Shown here: positions 26,376 through 31,628 of the stretch, in pieces
How the letters are laid out: each line of letters starts with the position of its first letter
How positions within the stretch are numbered: the first letter of the stretch is position 1
DNA from: Candidatus Heimdallarchaeota archaeon
GTDB lineage: Archaea; Asgardarchaeota; Heimdallarchaeia; JABLTI01
Length of the DNA: 32,000 nt
Direction: 5' to 3'
Assembly (NCBI GenBank): GCA_030614005.1
Contig: JAUWKS010000025.1
Span: 12,275-44,274, forward strand
Position numbers and translations under genes: made by a program
The notes under the pieces: generated by a model
The model's input: the letters and a program-made list of their open reading frames with translations, nothing else
The model's database searches: none
Told to the model about the DNA's origin: nothing

Positions 26376-28547
26376 ATGAAAAAATTCCTGCTAACACAAA
26401 AAATAACCTTATTTTTAGTTATTATGAGCTTGATAGTGAGTCTGTCTATGGGTGATTCAGTAATACCAAATTCCCCTCAGACTATTGATCAGACCCCCAA
26501 TAGCATTGACGATTTGGAAATTGATTTCACATTAAATCAAACATCGATTGGCAGACATAATGGAGCATTAGCTGAGATATTTTTGAAAAATACAGGTACA
26601 AATCCAGTTAGTAATGTAAAAGTTAACTTTACTCTTGATGGAGATTTTGCAGAATTTTCTTCAACATATCCTAGTTATCAAGAAGTTAGTTTACTTAACC
26701 CAACGCAAAATTCTACCATAAATGTAGAAGTAATTCTCAATTTAACACAAGTTGATGGTAATGCTGCCGCAGATGTAGTATTGGTTTTTGATGCGAGTGG
26801 ATCGATGAGTGGGGAAATTGATTCAGTGAAAGCTGAATTTACTGATGTTGTAAACCGCTTATCTGAGTCTATTAACTCATTACGAATTGGTATGATAGTT
26901 TACGGCTGGAATAAGTATAGTGAATATCCTGCTTCAAGTGTGTATAATTATGTTGAATTAACAACTAACCATGATGATGTATTAGATTTGATAGATGAAT
27001 TATATGCAGCTGGTGGTACTGAACCTTGGGGAGATGCTTTTGCAGTAATTAATGATTGGGATTGGCGTGAAGATGTTCCAAAGCTAGCAATTATTGTTGG
27101 AGATGAAGATTGTGATCCTGGGAATATTGTTGGAGTAGGTTCAACAGATTCTTGGTACAATGGGACTCAATTAGTAGATGTAATAACTTCTCTAAAGGAG
27201 AAGGGTGTAATAATCAATTCTGTGATTACAGGACTCAGTGCGAATGTTGAAAACCAATTTAATTGGATAGCTGATTACACCGGAGGCGAATGCGTATATT
27301 TGGAAGATCTTCAATCTGGTACAGACCCTGTTGACTTGCCAGAATTGATTGAAAGTTGGACATTGGAATTGGTAAGAGAGTATTTTGTTGATCTCAATGT
27401 CAATATCTCCTGGACTGAACTCCCAAAAGGAGATCCAATATATCATTCCACTGAATTATCAGAAGTTATTCTAATCGATCTAGCACCACCCTCTATAACT
27501 GTTTCAACAATATCAAACAATATTATTGATACAGAATATGAATTAGAAATTTATGCAACTATAAAGGATATCTCAGGAATCGCTCAAGTAAATATGTACT
27601 ATACATTTGATTCGCTTACGGGTCCATATGACCCTACTTGGCATTTTATGATTCTCACTGACGTAATTGGTAGTACTTATTATACAACACTTGATAACCT
27701 AGAGGAAGGGGATAAAGTATCATTTTATATTGAGGCTATGGACAATCTCAGCAATGTTGGATTAACAGTCATTTATAACATCACTATCGCTTTAAATCCA
27801 GTTTCTTTGGGATCAATATTAGAATTTCTTTTCACAGAAGATAATTCAACCAGAAATATAAGCTTTAATTTTACAGACCCAAATTATTATTACTATTTCA
27901 ATAGTGATCCTAATATGGGTTATCTTTGGATTGAGTCTGATCAGAGTTTGATAGTTACATTTGATGCAAGTGATTTCTTAGTCACTACATTATACACCGG
28001 TCCAACAAATAAAATCTTCAGAATTAACAAAACTTCTGTGACCGATCTCTTTATCGCTTCGATTCAAGGGGATACTAGCAACTCAACTATTAAAGTAAAA
28101 TGGACTATACTAGATGATATATTGGATTTTGATTACTTCGACTATGACAAACCGATTATTGATGAGATACGAAGAACAACATTATTACACGCACATTTAT
28201 CAATTTCAGGTGGAAGTGGCTTCTTTACATTGATACCTTACGATCCTGAGCTCGTTGCTTCAGTCACTATTTTCGATAGCGATTGGACAATAGTTGATAC
28301 AGTTGGTACATATGAGAATATTGAGTTGACCAATGGTGAATATTACTTTTGGGTTGAACAAGTTGTCCGTTCCGGAGCATTTGCTCTTTATTTTGGCGAC
28401 GAAGAAGTAACTGTAGGTGATCCATATTATAGAGAATATGCAATTCAAGCATCAATACCATTTGGTGTGCTGTTTTCATCTTTTGTTCTACTTGGCGTTT
28501 TCGTAACTTTACGTAAACGGAAGAAATCTAAGAAGGGGGCTAACTAG
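26376..28547 (+). CDS. vWA-domain surface protein with Ig-like domains and C-terminal TM anchor
   Basis: Signal peptide; DVVLVFDASGSM (MIDAS DxSxS), GGTE, IIVGDE; archaeal Ig-like domain D..PP.I...A...D.SGI..V..YY...FYIEA.D...N; TM + RKRKKSKK. Confidence 0.9.
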   Translation: MKKFLLTQKITLFLVIMSLIVSLSMGDSVIPNSPQTIDQTPNSIDDLEIDFTLNQTSIGRHNGALAEIFLKNTGTNPVSNVKVNFTLDGDFAEFSSTYPSYQEVSLLNPTQNSTINVEVILNLTQVDGNAAADVVLVFDASGSMSGEIDSVKAEFTDVVNRLSESINSLRIGMIVYGWNKYSEYPASSVYNYVELTTNHDDVLDLIDELYAAGGTEPWGDAFAVINDWDWREDVPKLAIIVGDEDCDPGNIVGVGSTDSWYNGTQLVDVITSLKEKGVIINSVITGLSANVENQFNWIADYTGGECVYLEDLQSGTDPVDLPELIESWTLELVREYFVDLNVNISWTELPKGDPIYHSTELSEVILIDLAPPSITVSTISNNIIDTEYELEIYATIKDISGIAQVNMYYTFDSLTGPYDPTWHFMILTDVIGSTYYTTLDNLEEGDKVSFYIEAMDNLSNVGLTVIYNITIALNPVSLGSILEFLFTEDNSTRNISFNFTDPNYYYYFNSDPNMGYLWIESDQSLIVTFDASDFLVTTLYTGPTNKIFRINKTSVTDLFIASIQGDTSNSTIKVKWTILDDILDFDYFDYDKPIIDEIRRTTLLHAHLSISGGSGFFTLIPYDPELVASVTIFDSDWTIVDTVGTYENIELTNGEYYFWVEQVVRSGAFALYFGDEEVTVGDPYYREYAIQASIPFGVLFSSFVLLGVFVTLRKRKKSKKGAN

Positions 28548-28598
28548 CTTCCTTTTTAAATAATTTTGAATTATAACCAGATAAGTGTGGGTGATTTA

Positions 28599-31500: not shown

Positions 31501-31628
31501 ATTGTGAGAATATCGCTCACAGAGAGCATTTATTAGAATGGATAAAAGTGAAAGGCTCTTGTCCTGTTTGCCAAAGACATTTGAAAGCTGCTGATATAAA
31601 ACCCTCTGTCTCCAGTGAAGAAGAGTAA
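28599..31628 (+). CDS. Type-I membrane protein: propeller-like ectodomain with Ca loops + Ig-like stalks, TM, helical cytoplasmic region, zinc ribbon and RING finger (putative receptor E3 ligase)
   Basis: GTG start with GGTGA RBS (ORF track start is 28566); DVNGDGFFE (29205) and DIDMDDNDE (29724); many N-x-S/T sequons; TM about 30600..30672; C-x2-C-x10-C-x2-C (31374) and C-x2-C-x12-C-x2-C-x4-H-x2-H-x3-W-x6-C-P-x-C (31446..31571). Confidence 0.85.
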   Translation: MKKILISYLVISSLILSSLVIAFAVTNNSRKGFSLNNPGLIESYGYELYQDTELDYLLQKTADLSFNDSHEMNEINSVDFTNSFAGGYITVGSIKNQTEHKHGLLQLIEFDDTIMTDPEPFVSQVYLNTTIAETEYLTCRAINTSFDSSSQNPTVFALKEITNITKTFDIDILEIDVGHFSLNSTLVINSTLFGSLEQFVVFDVNGDGFFEIYIIGENATNTDNYLLVEYEYNLLNEEYELSHILEWNANDLEITAMDYIEESTTLNFIISGVNATLTESFVIGISIPKENSRSFTFQSNFHMNFGSDVFITYNMKLYRSNESANPGIVLFGTHISGADNYPSCVTVSYQSGTFGTPSLESLDVSPGWSFDGLISDIDMDDNDEIILTTYDLLSLSRSEYSIFSSNDLLEIDSGQPNTYRIKSCASLDLEYANIGSWLGYDSAGDHSIEFYLSQYIPISISANSYFLTKEILNEIQIETTDLLGNIRTRADFTVNAFLEAHPEINQSTTTVPNQITLNLTGLDEEITSDDIVIQVLKDGFVIDEHSFTIEFTVLPDFVVTFPAEPVVLRKEEDTTQIIQFTINNQLEFEIGVNVTIETDISESSNSNYFNVSSLSNSIYNLELELVDDYSEDTYTEIITITLVTNLGTYQFSTTLPVTTSFQILPGDLLNVLWIMLSIVVVLFIAFLFITYRVNKKSIRNQITNEEPLVMNLPWFKSKAIDNLIKEYSTTGNWEMGIKLSEEYLPERLELFHGYRARDLLLEGQNLAWEGKFFDTLTNWQKAKESLIVLKNEQWLDIINWILDPLSKIVDARKMKNKEKKAAALLNEFELLNGLSEQSRRIMGIELTIPLYFVAEDLGLSYKDSDDLQNSLTHLQYAYQYAPDFYKNRIIKEITQLIGMGVQPKEMVIPQAQEVIKDRIARRMIRCFSCGTEKAFGEDICPNCGVETVQCSVCKLPISFGVGTAECPHCENIAHREHLLEWIKVKGSCPVCQRHLKAADIKPSVSSEEE

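Follow-up and report, generated by a model that had tools for sequence, protein, structure and literature searches.

The window analysed here, a stretch of 32,000 nucleotides from contig JAUWKS010000025.1 of a Candidatus Heimdallarchaeota archaeon (assembly GCA_030614005.1, positions 12,275 to 44,274), carries between 26376 and 31628 two co-oriented genes on the + strand, each encoding a protein with a single transmembrane (TM) helix. Gene 1 displays a von Willebrand factor A (vWA) domain with a metal-ion-dependent adhesion site (MIDAS) outside the cell, and gene 2 joins an extracellular beta-propeller to a cytoplasmic RING finger. An earlier sequence-only reading had seen in the pair a possible integrin-like receptor wired to a RING E3 ubiquitin ligase. 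Both open reading frames (ORFs) and their adjacency were confirmed, and the Asgard host proved right, the more exact placement being class Heimdallarchaeia, the GTDB class shared with Ca. Heimdallarchaeum aukensis. The features of the pair are listed below, AF2 denoting AlphaFold2 models.

26376..28547, + strand: gene 1, vWA subunit; ORF of 723 residues with signal peptide, ectodomain, TM helix and basic 11-residue tail
26499..26738, + strand: N-terminal beta-sandwich of gene 1, CARDB-like (residues 42-121; AF2), bearing most of the predicted propeller contacts
26766..27365, + strand: vWA domain (residues 131-330; Pfam, AF2) with MIDAS residues D139-x-S141-x-S143, T215/E216 and D243
27381..27476, + strand: beta hairpin after the vWA domain (residues 336-367; AF2), with residues 349 and 351 in the predicted interface
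27492..28397, + strand: gene 1 stalk, an Ig-like domain (residues 373-470) and a beta domain (residues 480-674); AF2
28455..28511, + strand: TM helix of gene 1, followed by the tail RKRKKSKKGAN
28587..31628, + strand: gene 2, propeller-RING subunit; ORF of 1013 residues counted from GTG 28587
28803..29912, + strand: seven-bladed FG-GAP/VCBS-type beta-propeller (residues ~73-442 in GTG 28587 numbering; AF2)
29205..29231, + strand: Ca-type loop 1, DVNGDGFFE; D175 and D179 (fragment numbering) invariant in 20 orthologues
29724..29750, + strand: Ca-type loop 2, DIDMDDNDE; D348 and D352 invariant and E356 near-invariant in 20 orthologues
29970..30596, + strand: beta-rich stalk of gene 2 (residues 462-670, ~210 residues; alignment)
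30600..30671, + strand: TM helix of gene 2, followed by RVNKKSIRNQ
30678..31361, + strand: cytoplasmic helical region (residues 698-925, ~230 residues) with many invariant columns
31374..31427, + strand: zinc ribbon CFSC-x10-CPNC with invariant Cys; weak match to Pfam Zn_ribbon_3
31446..31571, + strand: RING-H2 variant, C954-x2-C957-x12-C970-x2-C973-x4-H978-x2-H981-x10-C992-P-x-C995, with W985

The vWA domain of gene 1 is recognised by Pfam (VWA, residues 133-307, E 1.8e-10; VWA_2 and VWA_4 also listed at E up to 1), a weak CARDB match precedes it at residues 46-122, and the AF2 model of the protein (mean predicted local distance difference test, pLDDT, 82) opens with a signal helix and closes with the TM helix. 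The family comprises 65 clusters among 5.8 billion proteins, each of ~700 residues and nearly all of the named ones labelled Asgard; the orthologues come from records labelled Heimdallarchaeota, Hodarchaeota or Asgard. In the 40-sequence alignment by which invariance was judged, D139-x-S141-x-S143, E216-P-W-G and G242-D-E-x-C-D are unchanged, and the MIDAS is therefore intact, although the combination of DxSxS with distal acidic residues is typical of most vWA domains and non-discriminating. Family-specific motifs, E216-P-W-G-D and G-D-E-D-C-D, stand beside the MIDAS at residues 213-221 and 242-247, with the usual MIDAS Thr (T215) varying and the neighbouring Glu216 invariant. From these sequences Glu216 may act as a MIDAS ligand, as in integrin beta-I domains, and is reminiscent of E220 of the integrin beta chain. 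The Ig-like domain of the stalk has a profile match to the Ig-like domain of Porphyromonas gingivalis peptidylarginine deiminase (E 0.0015), the beta domain that follows has no match in Pfam, and the tail is rich in K and R in every homologue aligned. The layout proposed from the sequence, Ig-like, vWA with MIDAS, Ig-like and TM, is borne out by the Pfam match, the invariant MIDAS and the order of beta-sandwich, vWA, Ig-like and TM elements in the model. It is also plausible from the model that the hairpin 336-367 completes the N-terminal sandwich, the vWA domain thus being inserted in a split sandwich, because the CARDB match ends at profile position 72 of 101, because the hairpin falls outside the complete Ig-like domain 373-470, and because residues 349/351 and 73-111 belong to one predicted interface.

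Gene 2 begins with a signal anchor. A word-index search returned six homologous proteins, and a full hidden Markov model scan of 1.84 billion representatives returned 17 orthologue clusters together with one distant protein bearing FG-GAP x8 (P0095). The AF2 model of the propeller is all-beta (pLDDT 73; predicted TM-score, pTM, 0.76), and VIA-align places it at Z 21.9-19 from many seven-bladed propellers, including integrin alphaM, alphaV, alpha6, alphaIIb and alpha5 (Z 21.6-20.0), which give the longest alignments (340-356 residues) and are statistically tied with WD40 proteins. The assignment to the FG-GAP/VCBS class was settled by predicted structures, because the top clusters are VCBS-repeat proteins in AFDB (TM-score 0.58-0.66) and an archaeal FG-GAP family in ESM Atlas (TM-score 0.69). 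A seven-bladed FG-GAP propeller, as the sequence-only reading had anticipated, is thus found by fold (pTM 0.76, Z ~20-22 and the AFDB and Atlas clusters), sequence support being weak: Pfam FG-GAP_3 matches 6 of 11 orthologues with a best E of 0.013, and hhalign relates the propeller alignment to P0095 with only 18% probability. The two Ca-type loops noticed at the outset hold their Asp positions invariant across the 20 orthologues. The stalk below the propeller, read from the sequence as two putative Ig-like domains, has no match in Pfam. N-glycosylation sequons are distributed with 15 in the ectodomain and none in the 316 cytoplasmic residues, which favours the assigned topology.

Inside the cell, the helical region has no Pfam match, and an Atlas feature search proposes a TPR-like fold with a score of 0.81, which is under the trust level and a lead only. 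A zinc ribbon follows, and then the RING, which fits the eight-ligand cross-brace pattern as a C4H2C2 variant, ligands 3 and 4 forming C-x2-C rather than C-x-H. All eight ligands are invariant in the 13 sequences compared (from partner types A and C, described below), as are the two E2-contact positions of the finger, the Trp four residues past ligand 6 (W985) and the Pro of CPxC (P993). Searched against the PDB, the RING profile finds Arkadia (1e-8), RNF4 (1.4e-8), RNF13 (2e-5) and ZNRF3 (3e-5), as well as RNF165, RNF38, RLIM, EL5, AMFR and HRD1, the top matches being RING-H2 E3 ligases only. Pfam zf-RING_2 scores gene 2 at 16.8 bits against a cut-off of 27.3, and type C relatives at 29-31.5 bits, above it. 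The TM segment and cytoplasmic RING proposed for gene 2 are present, and the genome also has genes for ubiquitin (one), UQ_con E2s (three) and ThiF-type E1-like proteins (three). The tail of zinc ribbon and RING occurs in 21 copies in the 3.6-Mb genome, in open frames of 154-826 residues. RING-tailed proteins are greatly expanded in this genome, and one alone adjoins a gene of the gene 1 type.

An alternative is that the finger at the C-terminus lacks E3 activity, serving as a zinc module for structure or binding, and that the pair signals or adheres by other means. The C4H2C2 ligand order, the Pfam score under the cut-off, the type B tails that have neither His nor Trp, and a partner in Candidatus Lokiarchaeum ossiferum that bears winged helix-turn-helix domains in place of a RING, the output module being exchangeable, all speak for it. 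The best solved relatives of the finger are nonetheless all active RING-H2 E3s, its E2-contact Trp and CPxC Pro do not vary, and the E2 and ubiquitin genes are at hand, which makes this alternative improbable.

The association of the two ectodomains was assessed by predicting the complex of the propeller with gene 1 residues 40-475, a separate alignment being supplied for each. The interface score ipSAE (interaction prediction score from aligned errors) came to 0.75, 0.78 and 0.75 in three runs, with the best control at 0.00; in calibration, 58 of 80 solved complexes and 2 of 110 mismatched pairs attain the mark. All three runs give the same contacts (100% agreement), and the partner pLDDT is 84. 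This supports, at the level of a predicted model, a heterodimer of the ectodomains of genes 1 and 2. The contacts lie on gene 1 at residues 46, 73-79, 105-111, 349 and 351, and on the propeller fragment in loops and at strand ends within residues 225-365, including strand 281-285, which reads FITY here and FRxY in most orthologues. The heterodimer proposed from the sequence therefore stands as a prediction, whereas the geometry given for it, a vWA domain seated on the propeller as the integrin beta-I domain is, does not: contact is made by the N-terminal beta-sandwich (46-111) with 349/351, and no residue of the vWA domain or its MIDAS face takes part. Since the predicted interface differs from that of integrins, recall of solved integrin structures is unlikely to be the source of the score.

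Conservation of the pair was examined at two depths. Within the genus, genes 1 and 2 are adjacent in 8 of 10 congeners, the remaining two genomes being 69% and 83% complete. More widely, scanning the gene 1 alignment against one genome per species yielded 46 Asgard loci, and in ~37 of these the gene 1 relative adjoins a gene with an ectodomain, a TM segment and a RING-like tail. The partners are of three types, which fall in three different families of class Heimdallarchaeia. Type A (seven loci, this genus) consists of the vWA gene followed by a propeller-RING gene of ~1006 residues. In type B (10 loci, including genomes labelled Hodarchaeota or Hodarchaeales) the vWA gene lies beside a WD40-TM-Cys-rich gene that is either co-oriented or convergent, and since the partner occurs in both orientations, the linkage has survived rearrangement. 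In type C (20 loci, including H. aukensis) the vWA gene is followed after 0-10 nucleotides by a partner of ~430 residues with a signal peptide, a short beta ectodomain unmatched in Pfam, a TM helix and a RING-H2 above the Pfam cut-off. The co-conservation of the two genes expected at the outset is accordingly seen both among congeners and across Asgard loci, and the conserved unit is a vWA-TM gene with an ecto-TM-RING-like gene, the ectodomain of the RING subunit being exchangeable. Because that ectodomain differs by clade, the constant feature is vWA with TM-RING and not vWA with an FG-GAP propeller. The kept adjacency argues for a functional pair, and the swapping of ectodomains between clades argues against the propeller being essential to pairing.

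The type B partners have a layout of their own. They are exemplified by the genes at 3959-6319 (+) of locus L036, 8114-10438 (-) of L049 and 8139-10547 (-) of L054, and comprise a signal peptide, seven extracellular WD40 repeats, acidic Asp-rich repeats of DxDxDG type, a TM segment and a RING-like tail (C-x2-C-x12-C-x2-C-x4-C-x2-D-x16-CPNC) with an additional zinc ribbon. WD40 propellers outside the cell are unusual.

These observations bear on the possibility that the two genes encode unconnected surface proteins, one an adhesin and the other a receptor-type RING protein acting alone, which are neighbours by co-regulation or locus ancestry and form no complex. A terminator-like hairpin and a TATA-like box between the genes are in keeping with it, as are the ordinary conservation of the interface residues and the gene 1 relatives that have no RING neighbour; with 21 RING-tailed proteins to one gene 1 in the genome, RING-tailed receptors must mostly work without a vWA partner. 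Set against this are an adjacency maintained across three families, three partner ectodomains and two gene orientations, and a complex prediction that passes with its controls at zero. On balance the independence of the two proteins is unlikely, though among the rivals it deserves to be taken most seriously.

Outside the RING-associated types, Ca. Lokiarchaeum ossiferum (CP104013.1, locus L071, 5581-9185) has a gene 1-like vWA-TM gene overlapping the next gene by one base. That partner (P0096) has a signal peptide, an ectodomain, a TM segment and two winged helix-turn-helix (wHTH) domains, the layout of a membrane-tethered transcription factor, and it suggests that different output modules can stand beside the vWA gene. 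A search of 60 other genomes of that class did not find the ectodomain of P0096, which shows no similarity to the type C ectodomain; a general pairing of vWA with TM-wHTH genes was considered and rejected, the ectodomain being absent from those 60 genomes. A paralogue of gene 1 (41-43% identity), present in congeners (L038, L044-L046) and absent from the genome of the window, has no RING neighbour and adjoins an HhH-GPD glycosylase gene and a convergent EF-2/EF-G-type GTPase gene. In PADLOC, neither gene 1, gene 2 nor the type C partner matches a defence system, and the type B partner P0003 matches only the HEAT-ARM model, over its WD40 region; NCBIfam returned nothing useful for the gene pair.

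Taken together, the computed domain identities, gene pairing and interface favour, with a probability of roughly one half, a heterodimeric single-pass surface receptor in which a vWA/MIDAS ligand head is held on the propeller subunit and an E2 is recruited by the RING tail. How such a receptor would bind its ligand, act as an E3 and couple the two is inferred as follows. Subunit 1 would present a vWA head with its MIDAS, carried by Ig-like stalks and a base formed by the beta-sandwich, with only a basic tail inside, and subunit 2 its Ca-loop propeller on a beta stalk, with the helical region, zinc ribbon and RING-H2-type finger inside. The sandwich at the base of the vWA domain would rest against a single face of the propeller, so that the MIDAS face would stay open to a metal-dependent ligand. 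Most likely one of the E2 enzymes of the genome would be recruited by the RING, and binding of a ligand outside would be linked to ubiquitylation within the cell, acting on cytoplasmic targets or on the receptor's own Lys-rich tails.

Several results weigh against such a receptor. The predicted interface is no more conserved than the rest of the proteins: on the propeller it averages 1.83 bits against 1.95, with 2637 of 10000 random sets as low, and on gene 1 the contact residues fall below the average conservation of the ectodomain. Gene 2 belongs to a tiny family of 17 orthologue clusters, so that alignments are shallow and the complex score rests on purpose-made ones. The RING of gene 2 stays below the Pfam threshold with an unusual order of ligands, and the type B tail lacks both the His ligands and the E2-contact Trp. 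As for the pairing, some paralogues and orthologues of gene 1 (L044-46, L048, L055/L060 and L062/63) have no RING neighbour; of the 46 loci nine lack an ecto-TM-RING-like one, the paralogue in this genus and the L. ossiferum locus included. The related genomes that enter the counts are not independent samples.

Another arrangement would be that of ligase and client, in which the RING subunit mainly ubiquitylates the vWA adhesin on its Lys-rich tail, or else itself, and the surface level of the adhesin is set by degradation or by sorting of the ESCRT (endosomal sorting complexes required for transport) type, with no relay to other targets. Eukaryotic TM-RING ligases such as ZNRF3 and RNF13 control the levels of surface proteins by ubiquitylation, and both are matched by the RING profile. 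Homologues of gene 1 all share the K/R-rich tail, the predicted complex would bring the two tails side by side, and a link between ubiquitin and ESCRT has been published for Asgard archaea (Hatano et al. 2022, as cited in PMC13473652). The positive-inside rule, however, predicts a basic tail for every single-pass protein, and regulation confined to the pair itself is judged distinctly unlikely.

The integrin likeness that first drew attention to the locus needs separate consideration, since the pair might be read as a true homologue, ancestor or orthologue of the integrin alpha/beta heterodimer, with vWA docking on the propeller. In its favour are the FG-GAP-type propeller with integrin alpha chains among its top matches (Z 20-21.6 over 340-356 residues), the first rank of integrin beta chains in a Foldseek search of the PDB with gene 1 (E 6e-11 to 3e-9), a weak touch of the gene 1 profile on integrin beta3, beta1 and beta6 (E 0.04-0.1), and the invariant Glu216 beside the variable MIDAS Thr, with its possible likeness to integrin beta E220. 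The Foldseek alignments, though, have a root-mean-square deviation (rmsd) of 13-20 Å and a TM-score of ~0.2. In AFDB Swiss-Prot, FN3-vWA-FN3 collagens, Dictyostelium Sib proteins, YfbK and integrin beta1 rank alike, with the collagens ranking as well as or above integrin beta. The ranking was therefore rejected as specific evidence: the vWA domain alone superposes, any protein with a beta-sandwich, a vWA domain and another beta-sandwich ranks alike, and the result reflects domain order and not kinship. Rigid superposition of the vWA domain, which is compact, generic and of ~200 residues, gives TFIIH p44 as its closest match (Z 20.7, rmsd 2.3 Å, 175 residues), then CMG2, Rpn10 and BatB, with p44 and CMG2 spanning Z 19-20.7 at 2.3-2.5 Å; integrin beta is not among the 50 best Z scores, an absence that does not exclude the family, whose beta-I domain is enlarged and carries a specificity loop and ADMIDAS/SyMBS sites.

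Sequence signatures point the same way. Pfam Integrin_beta (PF00362) has no match in gene 1 at E up to 1 and none in a six-frame search of the whole genome, the gene 1 ectodomain has no PSI or I-EGF domains because it holds two Cys only, NPxY was not found in the gene 1 tail or GFFKR after the gene 2 TM helix, and Pfam Integrin_alpha2 (thigh/calf) has no match in the gene 2 stalk. The absence of NPxY, GFFKR, PSI and EGF motifs, conceded from the start, is thereby confirmed by the tail sequences, the two Cys and Pfam. Gene 2 has two conserved Ca-type loops, as against the three or four DxDxDGxxD hairpins in blades 4-7 of integrin alpha, and beta-I-on-propeller docking is not what the predicted complex presents. 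With the propeller tied with WD40 and other propellers, its family restricted to one genus-level group, the partner ectodomain swapped in sister clades and an interface that leaves out the vWA domain, homology with integrins is very improbable. The best reading is that of an analogous assembly from two old superfamilies, vWA and FG-GAP, and not orthology, so that the caveat of analogy attached to the original proposal was the sounder half of it. The likeness consists in two single-pass subunits, a MIDAS vWA domain in or next to a beta-sandwich on stalks, a seven-bladed FG-GAP-type propeller with Ca loops on a stalk, and a predicted ectodomain heterodimer; the Asgard pair differs in making its predicted contact through the sandwich, in having a RING output instead of talin/kindlin binding, in a partner ectodomain exchangeable between clades, and in having no PSI, EGF or thigh/calf domains.

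Other known systems resemble one half of the pair or the other. Eukaryotic receptor-type TM RING-H2 ligases (ZNRF3/RNF43, and the PA-TM-RING proteins RNF13, GRAIL and RMR) likewise combine an ectodomain, a single TM segment and a cytoplasmic RING-H2. Unlike them, gene 2 has an FG-GAP propeller on a stalk in place of a PA or ZNRF3-type ectodomain, a zinc ribbon and the ~230-residue helical region ahead of a C4H2C2 RING, a dedicated vWA-TM partner gene and an archaeal host. Proteins with a vWA domain in a sandwich (the Gram-positive pilus tip adhesins PitA and SpaC, Mfa5 and ITIH1) resemble gene 1 as metal-dependent adhesive heads on Ig-like stalks, PitA coming second in Foldseek, SpaC and Mfa5 appearing in the profile search and ITIH1 aligning over 261 residues; they are, in contrast, single-chain secreted or pilus proteins with neither TM helix nor RING partner. 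Prokaryotic FG-GAP/VCBS surface proteins give the best fold matches to the gene 2 propeller, whereas gene 2 is highly diverged in sequence and fused to a TM segment and a RING.

Both receptor-type TM RING ligases and adhesion receptors of the vWA/propeller kind are held to have arisen in eukaryotes, and among archaeal classes Heimdallarchaeia either lie closest to the eukaryotic stem or include it. No publication describing this vWA/RING gene pair was found in the literature searched, and the vWA partner and the predicted heterodimer of a RING-tailed receptor are new. All that this literature mentions is 'integrin repeats' in Asgard genomes (Liu et al. 2021, as cited in PMC9258230 and PMC9197732) and, unrelated to the gene pair, an 'integrin beta 4-like' family located beside tubulin genes (PMC9258230). 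Extending the receptor reading, Heimdallarchaeia may possibly have a whole family of heterodimeric receptors, built from a MIDAS-vWA co-receptor and a TM RING E3 with an exchangeable ectodomain (FG-GAP, WD40 or small beta), whose head converged in this genus on an integrin-like layout; this wider claim is put forward tentatively. If it holds, ubiquitin-based transmembrane signalling or receptor turnover would be older than eukaryotes, and, the pair being found in Hodarchaeales-labelled genomes too, an Asgard origin of the coupling between surface recognition and ubiquitylation before eukaryogenesis would become testable. The pair would also offer a small two-protein system for the control of a RING tail across a membrane. 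Its integrin-like head would have been assembled independently from prokaryotic vWA and FG-GAP parts, a caution against taking Asgard 'integrin repeats' as integrin ancestry.

The DNA around and between the genes holds three further features:

26251..26290, + strand: palindrome ACAGTTC..GAACTGT followed by TATA-like ACTATTTAA, ~90 nucleotides upstream of the gene 1 ATG
28529..28565, + strand: intergenic terminator-like hairpin with T-run and TATA-like TTTAAATA; consensus matches, not above chance
31637..31690, + strand: hairpin and T-runs 3' of gene 2, preceding a convergent short-chain-dehydrogenase-type (adh_short_C2) gene

The palindromic element with ACTATTTAA recurs at 11396-11431 and 11644-11680, in intergenic DNA at 11.4-11.7 kb, and palindrome matches with at most one mismatch number five against 1.3 expected, a count reached by 1 of 100 shuffles; palindrome and ACTATTTAA may together be a shared operator and promoter. 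The conserved element claimed upstream of the pair is therefore real and recurrent (26251-26286, 11396 and 11644), but gives no sign of serving both genes. Nor does the single shared terminator survive, for a hairpin of 13 pairs with a T-run (28529-28558) sits between the genes and a second follows gene 2. The TTTAAATA box lies ~20-35 nucleotides upstream of the GTG starts of gene 2, which may have a separate leaderless transcript. Sigma-70-type promoters and intrinsic terminators turned up in scans no more often than by chance, the promoter model not being archaeal, and with site counts at that level genes 1 and 2 may be transcribed together or separately. Candidate starts of gene 2 are TTG 28566, GTG 28587 and GTG 28599, all leading to the stop at 31628; public gene calls use GTG 28587 (forms P0005 and P0006) or GTG 28599 (P0007), and the 51-nucleotide gap first given between the genes applies with the GTG 28599 start only, not with GTG 28587 or TTG 28566.

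The window is AT-rich (GC ~32%), and the RNA runs listed include none carrying this stretch, which appears in DNA runs only, from cold-seep and marine-sediment metagenomes. The neighbouring genes include those of an Arf-family GTPase, NurA, a family B DNA polymerase and an HflX-like GTPase. At 23259-24890 (+) lies a gene for a 543-residue protein unmatched in Pfam, with weak NCBIfam matches to a Ca2+-stabilised adhesin repeat and an LPXTG-like anchor; genes for a surface protein and a D-Ser-dehydratase-like protein are also found upstream of the vWA gene in type A loci of other genomes, a synteny within the genus. The Arf-family GTPase at 16620-17612 (-) has 330 residues (Pfam Arf, E 4e-40), of which ~160 form a C-terminal extension.

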